From an uncultured Bacteroidales bacterium (GTDB taxonomy: Bacteria > Bacteroidota > Bacteroidia > Bacteroidales > PWNQ01): a stretch of DNA of 64,000 nucleotides. Of the stretch, positions 1,784-13,685 are shown piece after piece. The position numbers and the translations under genes are program-made. Each line of letters opens with the position of its first letter. Positions within the stretch are counted from its first letter, which is position 1. The notes beneath the pieces are model-generated. The model made no database searches. It was not told where the DNA came from and was given only the letters and a program-made list of their open reading frames with translations. The stretch is from contig CAYZDA010000008.1 in assembly GCA_964477095.1 (NCBI GenBank), positions 276 through 64,275 of the forward strand. Direction: 5' to 3'.

Positions 1784-1881
1784 GTGTTTTTATGGCAAAA
1801 ATATTTGGATTCAGCATGATTTTCTTCTATATTTGGCAAATTATCATAGTCAACCAGGTTTTTAGACGGACTGCCGTTGTG
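1784..1881 (+). repeat. Copy 1 of promoter + conserved-site element
   Basis: GTGTTTTTATGGCAA..TATTTG..TTTCTTCTATATTTG..GTCAACCA..TTTTTAGACGGACTGccGTTGTG. Aligns without gaps over 73 nt with 12897-12969. Contains Bacteroidota -33 TTTG and -7 TATATTTG boxes. Confidence 0.8.
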
Positions 1882-1893
1882 TCCAAGCTTAGA

Positions 1894-2337
1894 ATGACGA
1901 GCAATATCAAAAATACCGGCCTGACCATAACGCTTCTGACTGTACAAACTTGTTACGTACGGGACAACCAATTGTTTACTAAAAAAATCATACAAGAAAT
2001 TGCAAAGAACAATTATGCACCCCCCTGTCCTGGCGGGTTTATGCATGGAGAAACACCACGGTATAACCTGAATATATTCTTAAAAGAAACTGCAACGACT
2101 GAGGAGCTAATAAAATATACTGACGATAAAAGACCGGTAGTAAGTACATATACTTTCAAATGCTCAGACGAAGGAAAATATGACAAGCTTTTTCAAATAG
2201 CTGTCAGGCAGATACAAGACACAGCGAAAGATAGTTTTGTGGGACATATTTCAGAATATGTTTATGATGGGGCTTACTTTGCGATTGTTAACCCATTAAA
2301 TTACGTCAAGGTAAACGATTTTCAAAAAAAAGTCTGA
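1894..2337 (+). CDS. Hypothetical helical (HEAT-like) protein, probably degenerate
   Basis: In-frame ATG 13 nt after the element. The longer ORF from 1702 runs through the non-coding element. Motif LKETATTEELIKYTDDKRPVV. Ends in an A-run. Confidence 0.4.
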   Translation: MTSNIKNTGLTITLLTVQTCYVRDNQLFTKKIIQEIAKNNYAPPCPGGFMHGETPRYNLNIFLKETATTEELIKYTDDKRPVVSTYTFKCSDEGKYDKLFQIAVRQIQDTAKDSFVGHISEYVYDGAYFAIVNPLNYVKVNDFQKKV

Positions 2338-2494
2338 AAATACTTTTAAAGCCATTTACAGATACAAGAATGCCAAAGGTGAAAAAATTGAATTCATATA
2401 AACTGAGATAATATTTAAATCATTAGTTATGAGCCGAGGCATGGCAAATATTTTTGACACGCACTTGCATGAATACCATGTATGTGGCGGGTAT

Positions 2495-2532
2495 TAAATT
2501 TGTCATGGCGAGTTCCCCCGCCGTTTGCGGGG
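2495..2532 (+). promoter_or_regulatory. -7 promoter box and GC-rich 5'-UTR hairpin of the giant gene
   Basis: TAAATTTG (2495-2502) fits TAnnTTTG. CCCCGC-cgttt-GCGGGG stem at 2516-2532. Confidence 0.45.
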
Positions 2533-2569
2533 CCAGCTATATGGGCGCTAAAATCAAAATTTTAATTAT

Positions 2570-5500
2570 ATGAAAAAACTTTTACTCTCTCTGGCAATGT
2601 TAATGATAGCAGGTTTTCTTTCAGCACAATCACCGGTTGTGTTCCATGAAAACTTTGAGCTCCCTTCAGGAGCTGATAGTGTAAGCCACTATTCGTCATC
2701 GTCAAACAACACATGGGGAATCTCCACCTCTTTATCTTCCGGCGGTGTACAGTCGGATTCGGCGAAGTGTTCCCCTAATGATACGTTAATCGTAACGAGT
2801 AATACCTTTTCCACGACGGGAAATTCCTTTGTGATCCTGGAATTCGATCATATATGCAAGATCGAGGTTTTCGACAAGGGTGTTGTAGAAGTTTCCACGG
2901 ATGGGGGTTTAACCTGGACTCAGTTGGATTCCACGCATTATAAAGGGAATTCCACCACTTTTGGCTCTAACGGCAATATCTTCAATGTTTCGGCCTATGG
3001 CGGTGCCTGGAGCAGCGGGATTGTTGTTACGCCCGATAACAGCTGGTGGAAGCACGAGGTTTTTGATATTTCTTCTATTGCGGGAGATAAGTCCAGTGTT
3101 GAGGTACGTTTTAGCCTGATCGATGAAAACGGGATGACAATGTTTGAGAACGGGGGCTGGTTTTTGGATAACCTTCAGGTGAAGGCGGCGTTTTCGGAAT
3201 TGGATCCTCCGGTGATCACGATGTTATCACCCATACCGCAAGACACAATAATAGACGCTTTGGGGCAGGAAGTTCGTGCGGAGATCACGGACAATACCGG
3301 CGTAGATTCGGCCTGGGTGGTTTATTCGGTTAACGGTGTTTTTGCCGATAGTGTGGGCATGCAGAATGTCAGCGGCAACACCTATGAAGGCACAATTCCG
3401 TTTCAGGGATATGGCAAGACCGTCAGTTACTTTGTGGGGGCTGTAGATGCGGCGGCGGCGGCGAATACGGCTTCGGGTTCTGCCTATAGTTATGTGGTGA
3501 TGCGTACTTTTGCTTTTACCAATGCCGGAGCGACGGGTTCTTCGGGACCAACGCAGTCGGATCTGGATGCGGAATATGCGGGCACTAATTTAAGTGGTTT
3601 GGTTACTTCTGTGAATGGATATCAGCAGTGGATGGTTCCGCAGACGGGTCAATACAGGATAACGGCTTATGGGGCTGAGGGAGGTGGTGTCGATTCTTCT
3701 CACCGCGGCCAGGGCGGCCGTTCGGAAGGTCTGGTACAGTTGAATGCCGGGGATATTTTGTATATAGGTGTCGGCCAGGCCGGCCAGTATGGCCATAATG
3801 CCTCCAGCGCACCGGCCGGTGGCTTTAATGGTGGAGGTGACGGAGGTAGTTCCGGTCAAACCGAGCATGGCAGTTCCGGCGGAGGAGCCTCGGATGTACG
3901 GATCAATGATACGACCTTAGCCAGTCGTGTAATTGTAGCCGGCGGCGGCGGTGGTGGTACCGGTGATGGTGTTGAGTCGTGGCGCCGTGGTGGCGGCGGC
4001 GGCGGCGGCGGTGGCTACTACGGTGGTGGCGGCGGCCATGGCGGAAACGAATCCCCTTACGATCCCGGTAAAGGCGGGACACAATCTGCCGGTGGGCAGG
4101 GTGGCGGAACATACTCTGGTAATACGGATGGCGGATTTGGCTATGGAGGAAATGGAGGAAATTGTGATCCCTCTTACACCTCATCCTTTTCTTCCAACAT
4201 CAACCAATACGGTGGTGATGGCGGAGGTCTTACCGGCCAGGATGGCCAGGACGGAGGAAGCAGCAGCCGTGCTGACGGCGGTGGGGGTGGTTCCAGCTAT
4301 ACCGGCGGTTTATCTTCCTATCCTCTGACCAATGCCAACACTCAAAGCGGTGTTCGTGATGGTCACGGGCTGGTGATCATCGAGCCGCAGTTTCCTATTA
4401 CTTCAGCCGAAAATGATGCCGGCGTGGTTTCTGTTGATGAGCCGGATATATATTGCCCGGGCTCAAATGATGTGATCGTTACCATCTCGAACTTTGGGAG
4501 CAATCAAATTAATGGTGTGGATGTGGAATGGACGGTGAATGGTGTATCCCAAACACCGGTGAGCTATAGCGGCACGTTGGATACAGTAGGGGGTTCGGGT
4601 TCTGTGAATGATACGGTTAACCTGGGCAGTTATACCTTTACCAATGCACCCTATGATATTGTAGCCTGGACTTCTAATCCTAATGGTGTTGCTGATACGG
4701 TTAATATGAACGATACGGTTTATGCCACGGTGCAGTCCAGCTTACCGGCGCCAGGCGGATTAACGGTATTGGATACGACCGGTACCACTGCAGTGATCGA
4801 CTGGACAGGCGGTTCACCGGCCAATAGCTGGATATATGTAGTCGTACCCCAGGGGGATCCTGTTAATACGGGAATACCTGTTCATGTAACGACAGAGGGT
4901 GATACGGTTACGGGATTAAGCCCCCTTACGGCTTATGATGTTTACGTGGCAGAGTTATGCCCCGGAGGGACAGATACTTCTGCCTGGGCCGGGCCGGTGA
5001 GTTTTTCAACTACCTTCTACTGTCCGCCTCAGGCATATTGCTTTACGAATGCCGGTGCTACCGGCACCCATGGACCCGGTCAGTCAGATGTTAATCTTGA
5101 GTATGCCGGAACAAGCCTGGATGGGCAGGTAACAATTGTAGGGAATGGCATTCAACAATGGACGGTTCCATCGTCAGGAATCTATCAGATTGAAGTATTG
5201 GGAGCACAGGGAGGAGGCCCTGCCGGTGGTTTAGGAGCAAAAGTAAAGGGGGATTTCCAATTAAATAGTGGTGAAGTATTAAATGTCCTGGTGGGGCAGA
5301 AAGGAGAAGTCGGTGGGAGTCGTCAATTGACAGGCAGTGGCGGTGGAGGTAGTTTTGTTGTTGATAACAATGATAATCCGCTGATCATAGCCGGAGGCGG
5401 TGGAGGAGGAGCCGACATCACGAGGAGTGAGCGTCATGGTACGACCAACAATATTGCTAATGATGGTCGCTGTCCGGTTGGCGGGGACAGTGATAATTGT

Positions 5501-8500
5501 GATTATAACGGAAGTGGAGGGGCAACTGACGAAACCTATTCGCCCGGAGGGGTATTTACGATTGATGGAGGTACTTCCGGTCGTCGCGGCGGTGGCGGAG
5601 GCGGATTTAATTCAGATGGAGAACAAGGTCAGTCCAGTAGTAGCGAAAATCCGGGGGTTGCCTATCTAAATGGCGGAGAAGGAGGCCAGGGTGGTGATGC
5701 CGATGGCGGTTTTGGCGGCGGCGGCGGTGCCAGGGAAAGCGGATATGATGGCGGCGGCGGAGGCGGTGGTTATAGCGGTGGTGGTGGTGCCACAGACCGT
5801 GATAACAATAGCGAGCACGTTGGTGGTGGCGGTGGATCATTTAATTCCGGGATGAACCAGGAGAATTTTATTGGGGTTGGAAATGGACATGGTATCGTGA
5901 TCATTAAACCTCTGTCGTCCGGCGCAGCCAACGATATGGGCGTTACTTCCCTGGATGCACCCGGGGTATTTTGCCCGGGAACAGAGGATGTGATCGTGAC
6001 TATTACCAACTTTGGTTTTAACCAGGTAGACAGTGTTGATGTCCATTGGGAGATCAATGGCGTGGCTCAGCCCACTTATTCACATACCTCCACCATAGAC
6101 ACCATGGGTGGTTCCGGTTCTTCTTCCGCACAGCTTACCCTTGGCAGCTATACCTTTACCAATGCACCATACCAGTTTAAAGCCTGGACAGAGAATCCCA
6201 ACGGCCAGAGCGATACGGTCAATGTGAACGATACAGTCACGGCCATGATACAATCGAACTTACCTGCCCCCGGCGGGATAACGGTAGTGGATACTCTTCC
6301 CAACTCTGTTACGTTTACCTGGACGCCTGGTTCTTCGCTTAATAGCTGGATATATACGGTGGTGCCAAAAGGTTCACCACCTTCCAGTGGCACGATCGAC
6401 AGTACATCTAACGATACGGTCACGGTTACGGGTCTGAACACGGTTACCCAATATGATATTTATGTAGCGGAAGTCTGTCCGGGTGGTGCGGACACCTCCG
6501 GCTGGGGCGGTCCTGTAAGCTTTAAAACGTCATTTGGGCTTAGCTGTACCACTGGCACCTCGGATGTGATCTTTACCGAGAACTGGGACGGCGGCCAGGG
6601 CAACTGGGCCGGCGATTTTGGCACTTCCAGCGGAGAATGGCAATTTGAGACCGGAACAACCAGCTCCTCCAGTACCGGTCCCAACGGGCCGCATGACGGC
6701 TTCCAGTACCTTTACTATGAAGCCTCCGGGGCAGGTTCTCCGGGTTCTGCCACCATTGTTTCCCCTTCGATTGACCTTTCGGCGGGTAACGACCAGGCGG
6801 TTCTGAGCTTCTGGATGCACGGCTATGGGGATGACATGGGAGGCTGCAGCCTGACGATAGGCGTTGGCACCAGCCCCGGTGGCCCCTTTACCACTGAATA
6901 CGATACAACCTTTTCCTCGCAGATCCAATCCAGTGAGAGCGATCCCTATGTGCGGGAGTTTGTGAACTTAAGCGCTTATCTGGGGCAGGTCATTTACCTG
7001 GAGATCACCTATACGGTGACCGGTTCCTATCATGCCGATTTAGCTTTAGACTTGTTTGAGATGTATACGTGTATTTCGTGTGCCTCGCCCATGAATTTAT
7101 CCGCTTCCAATGTAACCTCTTCCTCGGTAGATCTGAGCTGGAGCGATCCGGGTACGGGCAGCAGCTGGGAGATCGAATATGGCATGCCGGGATATACACC
7201 GGGCACAGGCACGAGCATTATAACTTCCTCTCCGCATACAGTTACGGGCTTAAGCCCGCTGACAGAATATGACTTTTACGTTCGCAGTATTTGCGGTGCG
7301 GGGGATACTTCCATTTGGGAAGGCCCTGTAACGGAAAAGACGCCCTTCCAGTGCCCGCCCAATGGTTTTTGCTTTAACAATGCGGGGTCTACGGGTGCTT
7401 CAGGCCCGGTGCAATCAGATCTGGATGTGGAATATACGGGCACTAATTTAAGTGGTTTGGTTACTTCTGTGAATGGATATCAGCAGTGGATGGTTCCGCA
7501 GACGGGTCAATACAGGATAACGGCTTATGGGGCTGAGGGAGGTGGTGTCGATTCTTCTCACCGCGGCCAGGGCGGCCGTTCGGAAGGTCTGGTACAGTTG
7601 AATGCCGGGGATATTTTGTATATAGGTGTCGGCCAGGCCGGCCAGTATGGCCATAATGCCTCCAGCGCACCGGCCGGTGGCTTTAATGGTGGAGGTGACG
7701 GAGGTAGTTCCGGTCAAACCGAGCATGGCAGTTCCGGCGGAGGAGCCTCGGATGTACGGATCAATGATACGACCTTAGCCAGTCGTGTAATTGTAGCCGG
7801 CGGCGGCGGTGGTGGTACCGGTGATGGTGTTGAGTCGTGGCGCCGTGGTGGCGGCGGCGGCGGCGGCGGTGGCTACTACGGTGGTGGCGGCGGCCATGGC
7901 GGAAACGAATCCCCTTACGATCCCGGTAAAGGCGGGACACAATCTGCCGGTGGGCAGGGTGGCGGAACATACTCTGGTAATACGGATGGCGGATTTGGCT
8001 ATGGAGGAAATGGAGGAAATTGTGATCCCTCTTACACCTCATCCTTTTCTTCCAACATCAACCAATACGGTGGTGATGGCGGAGGTCTTACCGGCCAGGA
8101 TGGCCAGGACGGAGGAAGCAGCAGCCGTGCTGACGGCGGTGGGGGTGGTTCCAGCTATACCGGCGGTTTATCTTCCTATCCTCTGACCAATGCCAACACT
8201 CAAAGCGGTGTTCGTGATGGTCACGGGCTGGTGATCATCGAGCCGCAGTTTCCTATTACTTCAGCCGAAAATGATGCCGGCGTGGTTTCTGTTGATGAGC
8301 CGGATATATATTGCCCGGGCTCAAATGATGTGATCGTTACCATCTCGAACTTTGGGAGCAATCAAATTAATGGTGTGGATGTGGAATGGACGGTGAATGG
8401 TGTATCCCAAACACCGGTGAGCTATAGCGGCACGTTGGATACAGTAGGGGGTTCGGGTTCTGTGAATGATACGGTTAACCTGGGCAGTTATACCTTTACC

Positions 8501-11500
8501 AATGCACCCTATGATATTGTAGCCTGGACTTCTAATCCTAATGGTGTTGCTGATACGGTTAATATGAACGATACGGTTTATGCCACGGTGCAGTCCAGCT
8601 TACCGGCGCCAGGCGGATTAACGGTATTGGATACGACCGGTACCACTGCAGTGATCGACTGGACAGGCGGTTCACCGGCCAATAGCTGGATATATGTAGT
8701 CGTACCCCAGGGGGATCCTGTTAATACGGGAATACCTGTTCATGTAACGACAGAGGGTGATACGGTTACGGGATTAAGCCCCCTTACGGCTTATGATGTT
8801 TACGTGGCAGAGTTATGCCCCGGAGGGACAGATACTTCTGCCTGGGCCGGGCCGGTGAGTTTTTCAACTACCTTCTACTGTCCGCCGAATTCTTATTGTT
8901 TCACCCATGCAGGTGCTACGGGTCGTCAGGGCCCGACGCAGTCACAGGTTGATGGAGCGTATTCGATGACGAGTTTAGATGGAAAGGTTACGGTAACATC
9001 AACAGGTATTCAACAATGGACGGTTCCTTCAGGCGGAATATACCGGATTAAGGCAACGGGTGCCAGGGGAGGAAATGCCACCAGCGGTCCTGCACCCGGT
9101 TTAGGAGCTTCGGTTTCCGGAGATTTTGTTTTAAATACAGGGGAGCAGGTTCAGATTTTGATTGGGCAGAAAGGTCAGGACCGGGATAATTCTGCCGGTG
9201 GTGGCGGTGGTACTTTTGTTACCCGTTACCCTCACAATACGGAAGCATCTATTTTGTTAATTGCCGGTGGTGGCGGAGCATCGAGTGAAGACTTTGCCGG
9301 TATAGATGCTTCAGGGGATTCATGTGCTACCTATGATGCCCAATCAGGTCCTCCAAAATGTAATGGTGAAGGAGGGATATCCTTCAGCGGCAACTCAGGA
9401 GGGGCCGGAGGCGGTTTCTTAACAGATGGAGAAGATGGAGGAATAGGCGATGGTGGAGAAGCTTATATTTCAGGTGGCCGTGGAGGCACTACCAATAGTC
9501 AGCAGGAAGGAGGCTTTGGTGGAGGTGGCGGCCAGGATGGCTCAGGGACTTATGCAGGCAGTGGTGGCGGAGGTTATTCCGGGGGGAATGGTGGTAACCG
9601 GAACTCCTCTGTAGGCACAGGAAGAATGGGAGGAGGTGGAGGAGGTTCCTTTAACTCCGGAATTAATCAGGTTAACCAGGGTGGTGTTAACGATGATCAT
9701 GGCCTGGTAATAATCGAGCCTCTATCATCCGGTGCTGGTAATGATATGGGTATTACTTCCCTGGATGAGCCTGTTATTTTCTGTCCCGGTACGCAGGATG
9801 TCATTGTGACCTTAACGAATTTTGGAAATACACTGGTAAATACTGTCGATGTGGTATGGGAGATCAATGGTGTGGCACAACCCACCTATACACATACTTC
9901 GACCATAGATACCATGGGCGGCTCCGGTTCTTCTACTGTCCAGGTGACCCTTGGCAGCTATGCTTTTACCAATGCGTCCTACCAGTTTAAGGCCTGGACG
10001 AGCGATCCTAACGGGCAGCCGGATACGGTGAATACCAATGATACCCTGCAGGCGGTTATAAAATCCAACCTTCCGGCTCCGGCCAATCTTACTATGGATA
10101 GCGTGGCTCCTTACTGGGCCAGTTTTTCCTGGAGCGGAGGTTCGAGCCAGCATAGCTGGGTTTATGTGATAGTCCCGCAGGGTCAGTCGCCCGGCAGTGG
10201 CACCTATGTATCTTCCACTACGGAAAATGCTACGGACAGCAGCCTGAACCATATTACCGACTATGACCTGTATGTAGCGGAGGTTTGCCCCGGGGGAACC
10301 GATACTTCTTCCTGGGCCGGACCGTTGAGCTTTAGCACGCCCTTTGGCGGTGTAAACTGCCCGGGCGCTATGGTAGATACGCTGCTTACGGAAAACTGGG
10401 ACGGTGGCCAGGGCAACTGGACCGGCGATATCGGCACTTCCAGCGGAGAATGGCAGTTTGAGACGGGTACAACGGGTAGCTCCAGCACCGGCCCTGATGG
10501 CCCGCACAACGGCAGCCAGTATATTTACTTTGAAGCCTCAGGAGGAGGTTCTCCGGGCTCGGCGACTATGGTCTCCCCGGCTATTGATCTTACGCTGGCC
10601 AGCGGAGAAGCCTTACTGAGCTTCTGGATGCACGGCTACGGCGATGATATTCCCGGGGCCACGCTGACCATCAGCGCGGGGACGAATCCCGGCGGGCCGT
10701 TTACCCAGGTCTATTCGCGCACTTTTTCCGATCAGTTGCAAAGCAGCGAAAGCGATCCTTATGTGCAGGATTTTGCCAACCTGAACGCCTTTATGGGGCA
10801 AACGATCTACCTGGAGTTCCATTACGATAACCCGAACTCGTCGTATAACAGCGACCTGGCCCTGGATATGCTTGAGGTTATGGCTTGTGGTACTCCTCTG
10901 ATTCCGGAAGATGCCGGGGTGATAGCCATGCCTTTGCCGGAGTTCTACAACACGAACCCCAACCAGCAGTTCCGCGCAGTCGTGCGTAATTATGGTACGA
11001 ATACGATTCACAGCGTGGATATTGACTATAGCTATGCCAATGTGAGTGATACCTATACGCATACCGCCACGATAGCTCCCAACGCAACAGATACGGTGGA
11101 TATGCCGATTGTAAGCCTGCCCAATGGCAATACTGAGCTTTGCGCTTATACCAACCTTCCGGGTGACAGCAACCTGATCAATGACGGGATGTGCAAGCCG
11201 GTTTTCCGGGAGGTAACGACGGCTCCGCCCTATACGGATAATTTTGATGTCAGTGATTACTTTATGGCAGATACGGCCTCGGATAGATCGACTATGTGGG
11301 AGAAGGGCTCACCCGCAGGCTTTAATATTACCGGCGCCCATTCGGGCAGCGATGCCTGGATGACGGATCTGACGGCCGATTATGCCAATTCCGTTACGGG
11401 GGATATATTAACCACGCCGAAATTTGCGATCACGCAGGCTCCAGATGGGGTAGACTCGCTGGTTTTCTGGCACTATTATGATACGGAGCAGGGCGACGGG

Positions 11501-12736
11501 GGATATGTTCAATATCGCAATACCACCGGTCATTGGAGTATACTGGGAAGTATTAATGATACTACGGCCGTGAACTGGTATAATGAAACGCTCGGCGGGG
11601 CAGGCGGATTTTCAGGCAACAGTGGCGGCTGGATACGTTCCGCGATCTGTATCGATACCGCCCATATCAGTAATATGGCGGGAATCACGCAGTTTCGTTT
11701 TGTATTCACCTCGGATGGCACCGGGAATAACGGTGATGGCTGGGCGATTGATGACTTTATGCTTAAGGTGCCGATGTCGCAGTACGATGCGGGGATTCGC
11801 TCAATAGTTAATCCGGTGGATAGTACCGTGACGGGTGGTGATATCAGCGTAAGCGTAGAGATACGTAATTATGGTACAGATACATTAACGAGCATTCCTG
11901 TTTCCTATCAGGCAGGTACGCAGTCTTCCGTAAGCGAGACGTGGACGGGCAGTCTGGGTACTTATGATGTGGATACCTTTACCTTCAGTCAGACCTATAC
12001 GGCACCCGGTTCCGCCTATGAGTTGTGTGCTTATACGGAACTGAACCAGGACGGTGATCTGACCAACGATACGAGCTGCGCCTTTATTATGAGTAAAAAG
12101 CCGGCCCTGGATGCCGGGGCTGTGGATATCATCCCCATTGTTGAGTATCTGGGTAATGATACCACCTTTGTGGATACTACCTATGGTGATAGACCGGCCA
12201 AAGTGAAGCTGTTGCTTACCAATTACGGTAGCGATGAGCTAACGAGCATGGATGTTGAGTACCAGGTTGGCTCGAATGCACCGGTTAGCGAGACGTGGAG
12301 CGGTAGCCTGCAAAGCGGGGATACAGTTGCTTATATCTTTAACCAGACGTTTACATCAGCTTATGGAACGTATAATATGTGCGGGCGTACGCAGCTTACC
12401 GGCGATGCCGATGCGTCCAATGATGAGGTGTGTGACGGCTGGCGAGGGATAGTAGGGATAGAATCGCATGAGCTTCCGGGCTTTATTCTGTACCAGAACC
12501 GTCCGAATCCGGCTATGGAGCTTACGGAGATCGATTTTGAAGTACCCTATGGGGGCATAGCATCCTTCATGGTTGTGGACTTGTTCGGCCGCGAACTGGA
12601 AAGCCGCGAGCTAATAGTTACCGCCGGATATCATAGTCTTAGCCTGGATGTGAGTCATTGGTCTCCGGGTGTCTACTACTATAGCATCACCTTTGATGGT
12701 TATCGCTTAGTACGCAAAATGGTGATCAACAAATAA
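2570..12736 (+). CDS. Giant T9SS-secreted surface protein/adhesin: 4 glycine-rich ALK/LTK-like modules, FN3, CARDB-like Ig and MAM-like domains, T9SS type A CTD
   Basis: Signal peptide. Four modules FTxAGATG..QQWxVP..GxYxIxAxGAxGG..Gly-rich..HGxVIIxP. FN3 motifs (GLSPLTAYDVYV). MAM-like TTSSSxTGP..YLYYEAS. C-terminal LYQNRPNPA...PGVYYYSI...KMVINK. Confidence 0.9.
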   Translation: MKKLLLSLAMLMIAGFLSAQSPVVFHENFELPSGADSVSHYSSSSNNTWGISTSLSSGGVQSDSAKCSPNDTLIVTSNTFSTTGNSFVILEFDHICKIEVFDKGVVEVSTDGGLTWTQLDSTHYKGNSTTFGSNGNIFNVSAYGGAWSSGIVVTPDNSWWKHEVFDISSIAGDKSSVEVRFSLIDENGMTMFENGGWFLDNLQVKAAFSELDPPVITMLSPIPQDTIIDALGQEVRAEITDNTGVDSAWVVYSVNGVFADSVGMQNVSGNTYEGTIPFQGYGKTVSYFVGAVDAAAAANTASGSAYSYVVMRTFAFTNAGATGSSGPTQSDLDAEYAGTNLSGLVTSVNGYQQWMVPQTGQYRITAYGAEGGGVDSSHRGQGGRSEGLVQLNAGDILYIGVGQAGQYGHNASSAPAGGFNGGGDGGSSGQTEHGSSGGGASDVRINDTTLASRVIVAGGGGGGTGDGVESWRRGGGGGGGGGYYGGGGGHGGNESPYDPGKGGTQSAGGQGGGTYSGNTDGGFGYGGNGGNCDPSYTSSFSSNINQYGGDGGGLTGQDGQDGGSSSRADGGGGGSSYTGGLSSYPLTNANTQSGVRDGHGLVIIEPQFPITSAENDAGVVSVDEPDIYCPGSNDVIVTISNFGSNQINGVDVEWTVNGVSQTPVSYSGTLDTVGGSGSVNDTVNLGSYTFTNAPYDIVAWTSNPNGVADTVNMNDTVYATVQSSLPAPGGLTVLDTTGTTAVIDWTGGSPANSWIYVVVPQGDPVNTGIPVHVTTEGDTVTGLSPLTAYDVYVAELCPGGTDTSAWAGPVSFSTTFYCPPQAYCFTNAGATGTHGPGQSDVNLEYAGTSLDGQVTIVGNGIQQWTVPSSGIYQIEVLGAQGGGPAGGLGAKVKGDFQLNSGEVLNVLVGQKGEVGGSRQLTGSGGGGSFVVDNNDNPLIIAGGGGGGADITRSERHGTTNNIANDGRCPVGGDSDNCDYNGSGGATDETYSPGGVFTIDGGTSGRRGGGGGGFNSDGEQGQSSSSENPGVAYLNGGEGGQGGDADGGFGGGGGARESGYDGGGGGGGYSGGGGATDRDNNSEHVGGGGGSFNSGMNQENFIGVGNGHGIVIIKPLSSGAANDMGVTSLDAPGVFCPGTEDVIVTITNFGFNQVDSVDVHWEINGVAQPTYSHTSTIDTMGGSGSSSAQLTLGSYTFTNAPYQFKAWTENPNGQSDTVNVNDTVTAMIQSNLPAPGGITVVDTLPNSVTFTWTPGSSLNSWIYTVVPKGSPPSSGTIDSTSNDTVTVTGLNTVTQYDIYVAEVCPGGADTSGWGGPVSFKTSFGLSCTTGTSDVIFTENWDGGQGNWAGDFGTSSGEWQFETGTTSSSSTGPNGPHDGFQYLYYEASGAGSPGSATIVSPSIDLSAGNDQAVLSFWMHGYGDDMGGCSLTIGVGTSPGGPFTTEYDTTFSSQIQSSESDPYVREFVNLSAYLGQVIYLEITYTVTGSYHADLALDLFEMYTCISCASPMNLSASNVTSSSVDLSWSDPGTGSSWEIEYGMPGYTPGTGTSIITSSPHTVTGLSPLTEYDFYVRSICGAGDTSIWEGPVTEKTPFQCPPNGFCFNNAGSTGASGPVQSDLDVEYTGTNLSGLVTSVNGYQQWMVPQTGQYRITAYGAEGGGVDSSHRGQGGRSEGLVQLNAGDILYIGVGQAGQYGHNASSAPAGGFNGGGDGGSSGQTEHGSSGGGASDVRINDTTLASRVIVAGGGGGGTGDGVESWRRGGGGGGGGGYYGGGGGHGGNESPYDPGKGGTQSAGGQGGGTYSGNTDGGFGYGGNGGNCDPSYTSSFSSNINQYGGDGGGLTGQDGQDGGSSSRADGGGGGSSYTGGLSSYPLTNANTQSGVRDGHGLVIIEPQFPITSAENDAGVVSVDEPDIYCPGSNDVIVTISNFGSNQINGVDVEWTVNGVSQTPVSYSGTLDTVGGSGSVNDTVNLGSYTFTNAPYDIVAWTSNPNGVADTVNMNDTVYATVQSSLPAPGGLTVLDTTGTTAVIDWTGGSPANSWIYVVVPQGDPVNTGIPVHVTTEGDTVTGLSPLTAYDVYVAELCPGGTDTSAWAGPVSFSTTFYCPPNSYCFTHAGATGRQGPTQSQVDGAYSMTSLDGKVTVTSTGIQQWTVPSGGIYRIKATGARGGNATSGPAPGLGASVSGDFVLNTGEQVQILIGQKGQDRDNSAGGGGGTFVTRYPHNTEASILLIAGGGGASSEDFAGIDASGDSCATYDAQSGPPKCNGEGGISFSGNSGGAGGGFLTDGEDGGIGDGGEAYISGGRGGTTNSQQEGGFGGGGGQDGSGTYAGSGGGGYSGGNGGNRNSSVGTGRMGGGGGGSFNSGINQVNQGGVNDDHGLVIIEPLSSGAGNDMGITSLDEPVIFCPGTQDVIVTLTNFGNTLVNTVDVVWEINGVAQPTYTHTSTIDTMGGSGSSTVQVTLGSYAFTNASYQFKAWTSDPNGQPDTVNTNDTLQAVIKSNLPAPANLTMDSVAPYWASFSWSGGSSQHSWVYVIVPQGQSPGSGTYVSSTTENATDSSLNHITDYDLYVAEVCPGGTDTSSWAGPLSFSTPFGGVNCPGAMVDTLLTENWDGGQGNWTGDIGTSSGEWQFETGTTGSSSTGPDGPHNGSQYIYFEASGGGSPGSATMVSPAIDLTLASGEALLSFWMHGYGDDIPGATLTISAGTNPGGPFTQVYSRTFSDQLQSSESDPYVQDFANLNAFMGQTIYLEFHYDNPNSSYNSDLALDMLEVMACGTPLIPEDAGVIAMPLPEFYNTNPNQQFRAVVRNYGTNTIHSVDIDYSYANVSDTYTHTATIAPNATDTVDMPIVSLPNGNTELCAYTNLPGDSNLINDGMCKPVFREVTTAPPYTDNFDVSDYFMADTASDRSTMWEKGSPAGFNITGAHSGSDAWMTDLTADYANSVTGDILTTPKFAITQAPDGVDSLVFWHYYDTEQGDGGYVQYRNTTGHWSILGSINDTTAVNWYNETLGGAGGFSGNSGGWIRSAICIDTAHISNMAGITQFRFVFTSDGTGNNGDGWAIDDFMLKVPMSQYDAGIRSIVNPVDSTVTGGDISVSVEIRNYGTDTLTSIPVSYQAGTQSSVSETWTGSLGTYDVDTFTFSQTYTAPGSAYELCAYTELNQDGDLTNDTSCAFIMSKKPALDAGAVDIIPIVEYLGNDTTFVDTTYGDRPAKVKLLLTNYGSDELTSMDVEYQVGSNAPVSETWSGSLQSGDTVAYIFNQTFTSAYGTYNMCGRTQLTGDADASNDEVCDGWRGIVGIESHELPGFILYQNRPNPAMELTEIDFEVPYGGIASFMVVDLFGRELESRELIVTAGYHSLSLDVSHWSPGVYYYSITFDGYRLVRKMVINK
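3579..5028 (+). repeat. Internal direct repeat, copy 1 (1450 bp)
   Basis: Matches 7437-8886 (offset 3858) with no mismatch seen on reading. Shadow ORFs in the track recur identically at +3858. Confidence 0.9.
7437..8886 (+). repeat. Internal direct repeat, copy 2 (1450 bp)
   Basis: Same sequence as 3579-5028. Identity breaks at ..aatat(g/a)cggg on the left and tgtccgcc(t/g) on the right. Confidence 0.9.
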
Positions 12737-12759
12737 GTTTTCCCGGACATACCGGAAAA

Positions 12760-12804
12760 CAAACAAAAAACCGCCGGACAATTTATCCGGCGGTTTTTTG
12801 TTTG
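12760..12804 (+). terminator. Rho-independent terminator (possibly bidirectional)
   Basis: CAAACAAAAAACCGCCGGA-7 nt-TCCGGCGGTTTTTTGTTTG. Confidence 0.9.
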
Positions 12805-12896
12805 CCGCTGATACATTCAGATTCCTGAAGCCTGAATCAGGAACGTAAGCCGCGTTGACGGAAATAGAGCATATTCCGTTTTTTTATGGCCTCTGG

Positions 12897-13013
12897 GTGT
12901 TTTTATGGCAATAGTATTTGAACCGGACAAGAATTTCTTCTATCTTTACAAAACCAACCCGGTCAACCAATAAAACACATAACCGGCAGTTTTTTTAGAC
13001 GGACTGATGTTGT
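12897..13013 (+). repeat. Copy 2 of promoter + conserved-site element
   Basis: GTGTTTTTATGGCAA..TATTTG..TTTCTTCTATCTTTA..GTCAACCA, then ~20 extra nt, then TTTTTTAGACGGACTGatGTTGTG. Lies 30 nt upstream of the SanA-family gene. Confidence 0.8.
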
Positions 13014-13043
13014 GGAGAATTCAAAAAACGGCACTGTAAATAA

Positions 13044-13685
13044 ATGAGATACGTTAAAAGGATACTGAAAATAGGAGTTTTAACCGGGATTCTTTCTTTG
13101 ATTGGAATTTTTGGAGCAGATAGACTTGTTGAAAAATCAGCCTCTGATAAAGTTTTCAATTCTGCTATAGAAATACCGCATAACAAAGTTGGTCTATTTT
13201 TAGGGACAGGAAAAATTTTGTCAAATGGACGGATTAATCTGTACTATAAATATCGGATTGAAGCTGCCGTTAAATTATTTAAAGCTGGAAAGGTTGATTT
13301 TATCCTTGTCAGCGGAGACAACTCAACAAAAGATTATGATGAACCATCAACAATAAAAAAGGATTTGATTATAAGGGGGATTCCTTCAGACAAAATATAT
13401 CTTGATTACGCAGGATTCCGGACCCTGGATTCAGTTGTCCGTTGCAAAGAGATTTTTGGGCAGAACAGTATTACTGTAATTTCTCAACAATTTCATAATG
13501 AGAGAGCGATTTATATCGCTGAACAGAAAGATATTAACGCGATTGGATTTAACGCCAAAGACGTTAATGTGCATTATGGACTGAAAACCCGCTTAAGGGA
13601 AAGGCTTGCAAGGGTAAAAATGGTTCTCGACCTGATATTTGGTAAAAAGCCGAAATTCTTAGGACAAAAAATTGAAATAAAATAA
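13044..13685 (+). CDS. sanA: SanA/YdcF (ElyC, DUF218) family protein
   Basis: N-terminal TM. Motifs ILVSGDN, YLDYAGFRTLDSV, ISQQFHNERAIY, RERLARVK. Confidence 0.9.
   Translation: MRYVKRILKIGVLTGILSLIGIFGADRLVEKSASDKVFNSAIEIPHNKVGLFLGTGKILSNGRINLYYKYRIEAAVKLFKAGKVDFILVSGDNSTKDYDEPSTIKKDLIIRGIPSDKIYLDYAGFRTLDSVVRCKEIFGQNSITVISQQFHNERAIYIAEQKDINAIGFNAKDVNVHYGLKTRLRERLARVKMVLDLIFGKKPKFLGQKIEIK

Follow-up and report, generated by a model that had tools for sequence, protein, structure and literature searches.

In a 64-kb window of contig CAYZDA010000008.1, from an uncultured Bacteroidales bacterium, a repeat with a promoter-like block occurs twice, at 1784–1881 and 12897–13013, in the same orientation, ahead of an open reading frame (ORF) of 147 amino acids and ahead of a sanA-like gene, and a first-pass annotation of this DNA had taken the two copies for orphan attI-like platforms of an integron-like system. 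The repeat is a known kind of thing, namely debris of the IS1182 family of insertion sequences (ISs), and we consider it highly probable that each window copy is a solo right-end relic of such an element, approximately 90–120 nt long. The duplicated promoter is thereby explained as IS debris and a false lead to a new gene-capture system is removed, the finding for the window itself being an ordinary one.

The core of the repeat as the right end of an IS1182-family element

The genome to which the window belongs (G000; 3.04 Mb in 110 contigs, 97.7% complete, average guanine-plus-cytosine (GC) content 43.0%) contains five copies of the conserved core of the repeat, two in the window and three on contig C2 (1.7 and 2.7 kb apart), in one shared orientation; all five are right ends. 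When one genome per prokaryotic species was scanned for the exact pattern, at least 122 stretches were found phylum-wide, and the matches listed belong to Bacteroidales, Flavobacteriales, Cytophagales, Chitinophagales, Saprospiraceae and Chlorobiota. Additional copies had been predicted by the first-pass annotation, together with a stop of conservation at GTT and variable genes downstream, and these predictions were borne out, with the conserved part ending at ..CGTT and the downstream genes being diverse (lipoproteins, defence genes, toxin-antitoxin genes). Many scan matches have a contig end at a distance of approximately 100 nt, a pattern typical of assembly-breaking repeats; where the upstream sequence was shorter than 700 nt, 26 of 36 instances were no more than 125 nt away from the end. 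A literature search with the 13-mer core gave no paper containing it, while its 11-mers matched unrelated papers only.

A slightly altered, inverted copy of the core, A(A/C)CGTCA(G/A)ACTGTCTAAAAA, lies 150–2000 nt upstream of it in 17 of 67 testable cases; on the downstream side, which served as a control, an inverted left-end copy was present in 2 of 91 cases. On a complete Bacteroidales chromosome both inverted sites enclose a 514-amino-acid ORF, whose product carries the domains DUF772, DDE_Tnp_1_6 and DDE_Tnp_1 and scores 343.5 bits with the NCBIfam model of the IS1182 family (NF033551, cut-off 270). The 1.7-kb element was compared in three copies, of which two come from the same genome and the third from a different one; they are 98.6–98.9% identical over 1726–1740 nt, and the identity among them stops at ..GGACTGCCGTT. 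Homologues of the transposase, covering most of the protein at 55–67% identity, were found by tblastn directly 5' of the core in 13 loci, with fragments in approximately 12 more. When the 81 distinct cores from the collection scan were sorted by their upstream content, a full-length transposase gene stood upstream of 12, a transposase gene cut at the contig end upstream of 5 and transposase fragments upstream of 8; another 10 resembled miniature inverted-repeat transposable elements (MITEs), being small, two-ended and without transposase, 16 were solo right ends, and 30 were undecidable, with the contig ending less than 700 nt upstream.

The two-ended elements have a direct repeat at both ends (CGT in 33 of 37, CCGT in 19 of 37), which is a 3–4-bp target duplication. 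A longer target duplication or a longer terminal repeat was not found at the element flanks, and comparison of the left with the right flank of a given element showed no relationship, direct or inverted, above the level of shuffles. Judged from sequence, the core is the right terminal inverted repeat of an IS1182-family IS of approximately 1.7 kb which is spread across Bacteroidota. The stop of similarity at GTT is accounted for by the end of the element, GTT being the duplicated target and the following base. The prediction that a tyrosine recombinase would adjoin a copy failed, the partner gene being the IS1182-family DDE transposase instead.

The two window copies and their surroundings

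The features of the window that matter here are given below, one per line.

1784..1857, + strand: copy 1, subterminal region at the right end of the IS, with the putative outward promoter (block shared with copy 2)
1804-1807 and 1828-1835, + strand: predicted promoter of copy 1, -33 box TTTG and -7 box TATATTTG with a 20-nt spacer (from sequence and the promoter consensus)
1858..1873, + strand: copy 1, IRR (right terminal inverted repeat) GTTTTTAGACGGACTG, the same sequence as at the right end of 1.7-kb IS1182-family elements elsewhere
1874..1877, + strand: CCGT in place of the 3-4-bp target duplication, TGTG.. and onward being target
1894..2337, + strand: 147-amino-acid ORF 3' of copy 1, GC 36.9%, without family match
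2570..12736, + strand: giant adhesin gene (3388 amino acids) of the type IX secretion system (T9SS) type between the copies (Pfam ALK_LTK_GRD, fn3, Por_Secre_tail)
12759..12803, + strand: strong terminator-like hairpin, 3' of the adhesin gene and 5' of copy 2
12897..12988, + strand: copy 2, subterminal part with the putative outward promoter, approximately 20 nt longer than in copy 1
12917-12920 and 12941-12948, + strand: predicted promoter of copy 2, -33 box TTTG and -7 box TATCTTTA with a 20-nt spacer (from sequence and the promoter consensus)
12989..13006, + strand: copy 2, IRR with a T7 run replacing T5 (GTTTTTTTAGACGGACTG)
13007..13010, + strand: ATGT, a degenerate version of the CCGT/ACGT flank
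13044..13685, + strand: sanA-like gene 3' of copy 2 (Pfam DUF218; NCBIfam SanA 187.5 bits, below the cut-off of 363)

The two copies share a 73-nt ungapped block (1784–1856 and 12897–12969; repeat family D9) at 73% identity, and their local alignment reaches a score of 48, which none of 500 shuffles attained (mean 14.6, maximum 29). A second block, TTTTTAGACGGACTGnnGTTGTG, is present in both, preceded by a gap of 1 nt in copy 1 and by approximately 20 extra nt in copy 2, and the CCAATAAAACAC of copy 2 almost complements GTGTTTTTATGG. Similarity is lost past GTTGTG in both copies, and the genes start with ATG at 1894 and 13044. Each copy shows the predicted promoter boxes, TTTG and TAnnTTT(G/A) separated by a 20-nt spacer, which fit the Bacteroidota -33/-7 promoter consensus. 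In all these respects the first-pass annotation had described the sites correctly; its weaker upstream match (GTrAGCCG..TTGAC) is at chance level, with 319 of 500 shuffles scoring equal or higher.

That the copies are relics, and not ISs, is concluded because G000 has neither the transposase nor left ends. No IS1182 transposase was found in the window or in G000, either by tblastn or by the NF033551 search; the left terminal repeat was not found in G000 with up to 3 mismatches allowed, the right repeat being present in both window copies; and none of the five copies has a left end on its upstream side, that is, no MITE form was found in this genome. An nhmmer profile from the right ends of full-length ISs reaches the window at approximately 1822–1874 (E 0.005). 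In a genome of the same genus (G006) there is a complete miniature element of 355 nt (L068/L230), whose right part of approximately 110 nt is alignable with the window copies. The right-hand copy of the target repeat is CCGT for copy 1 and ATGT for copy 2, and the duplication at 1874..1877 is not demonstrable within the window, since the left end is absent there.

Each relic would consist of a subterminal outward promoter of the Bacteroidota type, the 16-nt repeat GTTTTTAGACGGACTG and the (C)CGT duplicated by the transposase on insertion, while TGTG.. and everything beyond would be the insertion target, at which similarity accordingly stops. The outward promoter may originally have driven the transposase across abutted ends. 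A promoter role of the present copies is plausible from their sequence: they would now act as promoters for the 147-amino-acid ORF and for sanA, with transcripts predicted to start a few nt past the -7 box and to carry the repeat within their 5' untranslated region (UTR), and the copies may persist owing to the usefulness of this promoter.

Several points weigh against this reading of the window copies. The genus-specific subterminal sequence was not found on any full-length IS, there being no transposase with any of the five genus-type pattern stretches, and a full transposase was found in none of seven same-genus genomes. For the promoter part (about -100 to -25), an IS origin is argued from weak profile matches (E 0.005 and 0.01) and also from the miniature element of G006, which has the same right part. 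The relic reading does not account for the way solo right ends arise or for the roughly shared left limit of the nine genus copies, and selection for the promoter is our own inference. Finally, although the genome lacks the transposase, conservation is far higher in the IRR than in the promoter part, and the repeat could instead have a DNA or RNA function of its own.

This last point leads to the explanation of the core as a cis-acting 5'-UTR element, i.e., an RNA hairpin or protein-binding site with its own function, which would define a regulon of accessory genes. Among the nine same-genus copies, the mean pairwise identity is 0.93 in the 16-nt terminal repeat, 0.56 in the promoter part and 0.51 in the leader, and falls to 0.26 farther upstream and 0.33 past +5; moreover, the core lies within the predicted 5' UTR of every downstream gene and can form GACGG-ACTG-CCGTT. 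However, the same 16 nt are an IS terminus with an inverted partner at the other end, the closing stem is missing from some copies, and Rfam at gathering score gave no match in the whole 64-kb window. The conservation can be explained by independent insertions from a diversified IS/MITE family, with the transposase keeping the ends constant, and we regard a regulatory element as an improbable account of the core.

Equally small is the chance we give to the window copies being direct-repeat ends of a unit of approximately 11 kb, which would comprise the 147-amino-acid gene and the giant adhesin and would have been inserted or duplicated en bloc, or could be lost by recombination. The window copies are indeed mutual closest relatives, sharing GTGTTTTTATGGCAA..TATTTG, which is absent from the copies on contig C2, and they flank a gene of contrasting composition (GC 52.6% for the adhesin gene and 34–37% for the flanking genes, the low-GC ORFs of the window having 33.7–36.9%). 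However, the copies are two right ends in the same orientation and therefore cannot form a composite transposon, their identity is a mere 73% over 73 nt, and the high GC of the adhesin may stem from glycine-rich repeats. In two same-genus genomes the sanA orthologues have another upstream neighbour, whose orthologue is on contig C37 in G000; the core motif has no match in one of these genomes and one match, on a different contig, in the other, and both are too distant for an exact empty-site comparison.

Copy 2 is contiguous in contigs from four DNA runs of two studies (one run being possibly the source of this DNA), with few base changes and with no joints or loose ends at 12897–13013; such run contigs drop rare variants and give no information on rare excision. 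At 12047–12498, a second contig in two of the runs matches only 12047–12070 and 12470–12498, with 405 differing letters between, and probably represents the C-terminus of a related adhesin, encoded by another gene or by another organism. In the adhesin gene itself (2570–12736), a stretch of 3.86 kb is internally duplicated (94% identity over 300 nt). The region 12752–12900, which includes the hairpin 12759..12803, folds as DNA at -38.2 kcal/mol (z -6.76), while the DNA upstream of copy 1 is unstructured (fold z +1.19). Six nt ahead of copy 2, at 12877–12891, lies CGTTTTTTTATGGCC, which directly repeats part of the beginning of the shared block.

Three further readings of the core were tried and rejected. 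A leader peptide was discarded, as the sequence variants are not consistently synonymous in any frame. An invertible promoter was suggested by head-to-head cores approximately 300 nt apart in one Cytophagales genome, which turned out to be two-ended miniature elements, and most cores have no inverted partner nearby. A dif/Xer site, suggested by comparison of the core by eye with the dif consensus, was dropped after the transposase and the CGT duplication had been found.

The palindromic target and recombinase-headed arrays in other Bacteroidales

Immediately left of the left IS end there is a conserved element of approximately 135–155 nt, which begins with ..YAAC.., ends with ..A(A/C)CGTT and folds into a long imperfect hairpin. 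Its long-range stem of 13 pairs shows compensatory changes in 12 pairs, and 89.9% of cells are paired, compared with 59.4% in shuffles (none of 500 reaching the observed value) and 34–40% when the partner columns are slid. Empty palindromes continue directly into A(A/C)CGTT and then into sequence like that past the right IS end, and near-identical IS copies occupy palindromes which, in an alignment read by eye, are roughly 55–65% alike. Near-identical ISs in diverged palindromes, together with the empty copies, therefore indicate that the GTT end of the palindrome is a specific insertion site of the IS. Of the 37 two-ended elements, 23 directly follow a palindrome, 7 are without enough flank and 2 are reverse readings of the same elements. 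In other Bacteroidales, the IS and its miniature derivatives have the ..CCGTT end of a palindrome of approximately 155 nt as their insertion site.

The palindrome, for which Rfam gave no family on six array loci, separates co-oriented ORFs in arrays. In five arrays or sites from the four genomes examined, a tyrosine recombinase lies 1–4 kb from the first palindrome, co-oriented with the array in three and divergent in two. One array occupies 476–539 kb of a complete chromosome, with at least 19 palindromes over approximately 63 kb. Large palindrome arrays with an Xer/IntI-like recombinase at one end were noted at G036:C1:475996-544149, G042:C3:7385-25137, G021:C5:103-23787 and G021:C7:14971-30830. 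Six recombinases were scored, namely the five from these arrays or sites and one from locus L232. Five of them score best on the XerA/integron-integrase model (202–242 bits, cut-off 220, which one passes), and the same five give 174–214 bits on the IntI model in two stretches (cut-off 265), with the IntI-specific middle part unmatched. The sixth (G021:C7) is more distant, with XerC as its best model (92 bits) and 40.5 bits on the IntI model in one stretch. For the recombinase of L237, the one compared with solved structures, the closest chains are XerA and IntI4.

Pairs of a recombinase and a Y2 transposase beside palindromes had at first been taken for integrase plus attI, a reading that was abandoned when Pfam identified them as IS91-like elements. 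Three copies of this IS91-type unit were observed, at 2120–3224 and 6684–7785 of L234 (G062:C1:3220000-3237000) and at 1534–2575 of L235 (G061:C1:4097000-4112000), each composed of a tyrosine recombinase of 280–299 amino acids and a 379-amino-acid Y2_Tnp/Zn_Tnp_IS91 protein, with the predicted start codon approximately 90 nt from the palindrome and in the opposite orientation. The unit looks like a second mobile element homing on palindrome sites. Other repeats and RNA motifs were noted as well: tandem hairpin repeats (GGAATCTTCTTTTATTCCA..GGGTTTACCCC) 5' of both IS-end copies in a same-genus genome (G001; L227, approximately 2320–2520 and 2990–3190), a short GC-hairpin repeat (..ATGGCGAGCTCCCCC..GACGGGGTAAACATC..) within the miniature element of G006 (L230, approximately 2470–2540) and also 5' of sanA in G007 (L216), and two DUF805 RNA motifs (RF03081, 76 and 83 bits) at 2611–2679 (+) and 5828–5895 (-) of L085, a Vicingaceae locus with the IS and palindromes.

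These arrays bear directly on the interpretation of the window copies as orphan attI-like platforms for capturing and expressing genes, belonging to a tyrosine-recombinase system that would cross over at G/TT, an interpretation that we now hold to be very unlikely. In its favour, variable, cassette-like genes of low GC come after a GTT-terminated site that itself follows a promoter, three copies of the core stand within a co-oriented array of small genes on contig C2 (GC 35.6%), and the order does hold an integron-like system. However, the core forms one end of a DDE transposon whose other end is its inverted counterpart, and the element has a CGT duplication: the CGT within the CGTT that closes the conserved part recurs as a direct repeat at the far IS end, so that duplication by the transposase can account for the G/TT boundary. 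Elsewhere, the candidate recombination site is the palindrome, into which the core is an insertion, and G000 has no detectable palindrome (neither the profile nor the covariance model gave anything significant in this genome, and with filters off the best E-value of the covariance model in the window and the C2 array was 0.68) and no array-type recombinase. As had been claimed, the window is free of integrase, there being no tyrosine recombinase on its contig; no recombinase was found within 18 kb of the C2 array, and the only two Xer-type recombinases of G000, at C2:1783 and C22:31997, are on other contigs or 59 kb away. For an IntI-type integrase, TIGR02249 gave no match above cut-off in G000, and both Xer proteins, used as phmmer queries against 478 ORFs of at least 150 amino acids (loci L053–L161, including scan loci), found no recombinase. 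What stands of the earlier claim is the existence of integron-like arrays in the order, and what falls is the identity of the window repeats, which are IS ends and not attI. The repeat looks integron-like because the preferred target of the IS is a cassette-array palindrome, and not because of the repeat itself. The array on contig C2 (L052, G000:C2:55000-73000, 3000–13200) was seen to contain HicA/HicB, HigB-like plus helix-turn-helix (HTH) and HTH plus SocA/Panacea modules.

A broader picture, which we put forward tentatively, belief and doubt being close to balance, is that a lineage of IS1182 elements and their miniatures has specialised on the GTT end of an attC-like palindrome in Bacteroidales arrays. 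Such arrays would be integron analogues with an Xer/IntI-like recombinase lacking the IntI-specific insert, the IS promoter would switch on the next cassette, and the solo ends in G000 would be exapted promoters before former cassettes, left after the array had lost its recombination sites. Canonical integrons are reportedly almost absent from Bacteroidetes (PMC9024848), yet the covarying attC-like repeat was detected by the covariance model in 48 of 61 genomes from the order, a single genome holding as many as 48 copies, and it forms arrays of up to about 63 kb that are headed by an Xer/IntI-like recombinase. If this picture is true, the IS-borne promoter offers a handle on the expression of cassettes in these arrays, which are probably the published rAID systems, and the 16-nt IS end and the palindrome model could serve as sequence markers for arrays in fragmented assemblies.

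Comparison with known systems

The likeness of the window to an integron platform lies in a promoter upstream of a site ending in GTT, followed by variable genes of low GC. The window differs in having no IntI and no attC-like hairpin at its copies, in the IS terminus plus target duplication at the boundary, and in its dispersed copies.

Mobile elements homing on cassette recombination sites are known in the IS1111-attC insertion sequences, which, together with the group IIC-attC introns, are the closest analogues of the palindrome-targeting IS. Both kinds target the canonical attC, whereas the Bacteroidales IS targets an attC-like array palindrome; their enzymes are a DEDD transposase or a reverse transcriptase plus ribozyme, in contrast to the DDE enzyme of IS1182 type, and none of such machinery is present in the window. 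Group IIC-attC introns are described as carrying outward promoters able to express downstream cassettes (PMC3001079, PMC11187229).

The rAID-1 (recombinase-associated acquired interbacterial defence) clusters of Bacteroidales consist of short, low-GC genes in one orientation, with conserved motifs between the genes and an Xer-family tyrosine recombinase, and have been likened to integrons (bioRxiv 10.1101/471110; PMC12247911). The recombinase-headed palindrome arrays fit this published description. In G000 there is neither such a recombinase nor a detectable palindrome, and the C2 array has IS-end repeats only. Regarding the defining arrangement of rAID-1, an Xer-family recombinase heading at least two co-oriented genes of less than 41% GC, the low-GC genes are present and the recombinase is absent near the C2 array and on the contig of the window.

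Outward promoters borne by ISs are well known, as Bacteroides IS elements upstream of cfiA, cepA and erm supply them, and 'mobile promoters' have been named in studies of promoter propagation. The window shares with these cases an IS end that would supply a promoter to an unrelated downstream gene; only the IS end is left there, and its promoter activity is predicted.

Full elements elsewhere behave as members of the IS1182 family, with a transposase above the NF033551 cut-off, terminal inverted repeats and several copies, whereas the window has just right ends of approximately 100 nt, without transposase and without a left end. Within this family, the behaviour described for IS1272 of Staphylococcus, which reportedly targets inverted-repeat structures (PMC5678879), comes closest, and a preference for palindromic or stem-loop targets is thus common to IS1272 and the Bacteroidales IS. 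No duplication is reported for IS1272 (PMC5678879), whereas the Bacteroidales IS is flanked by the 3–4-bp CGT repeat, and its target is one specific family of structured repeats.

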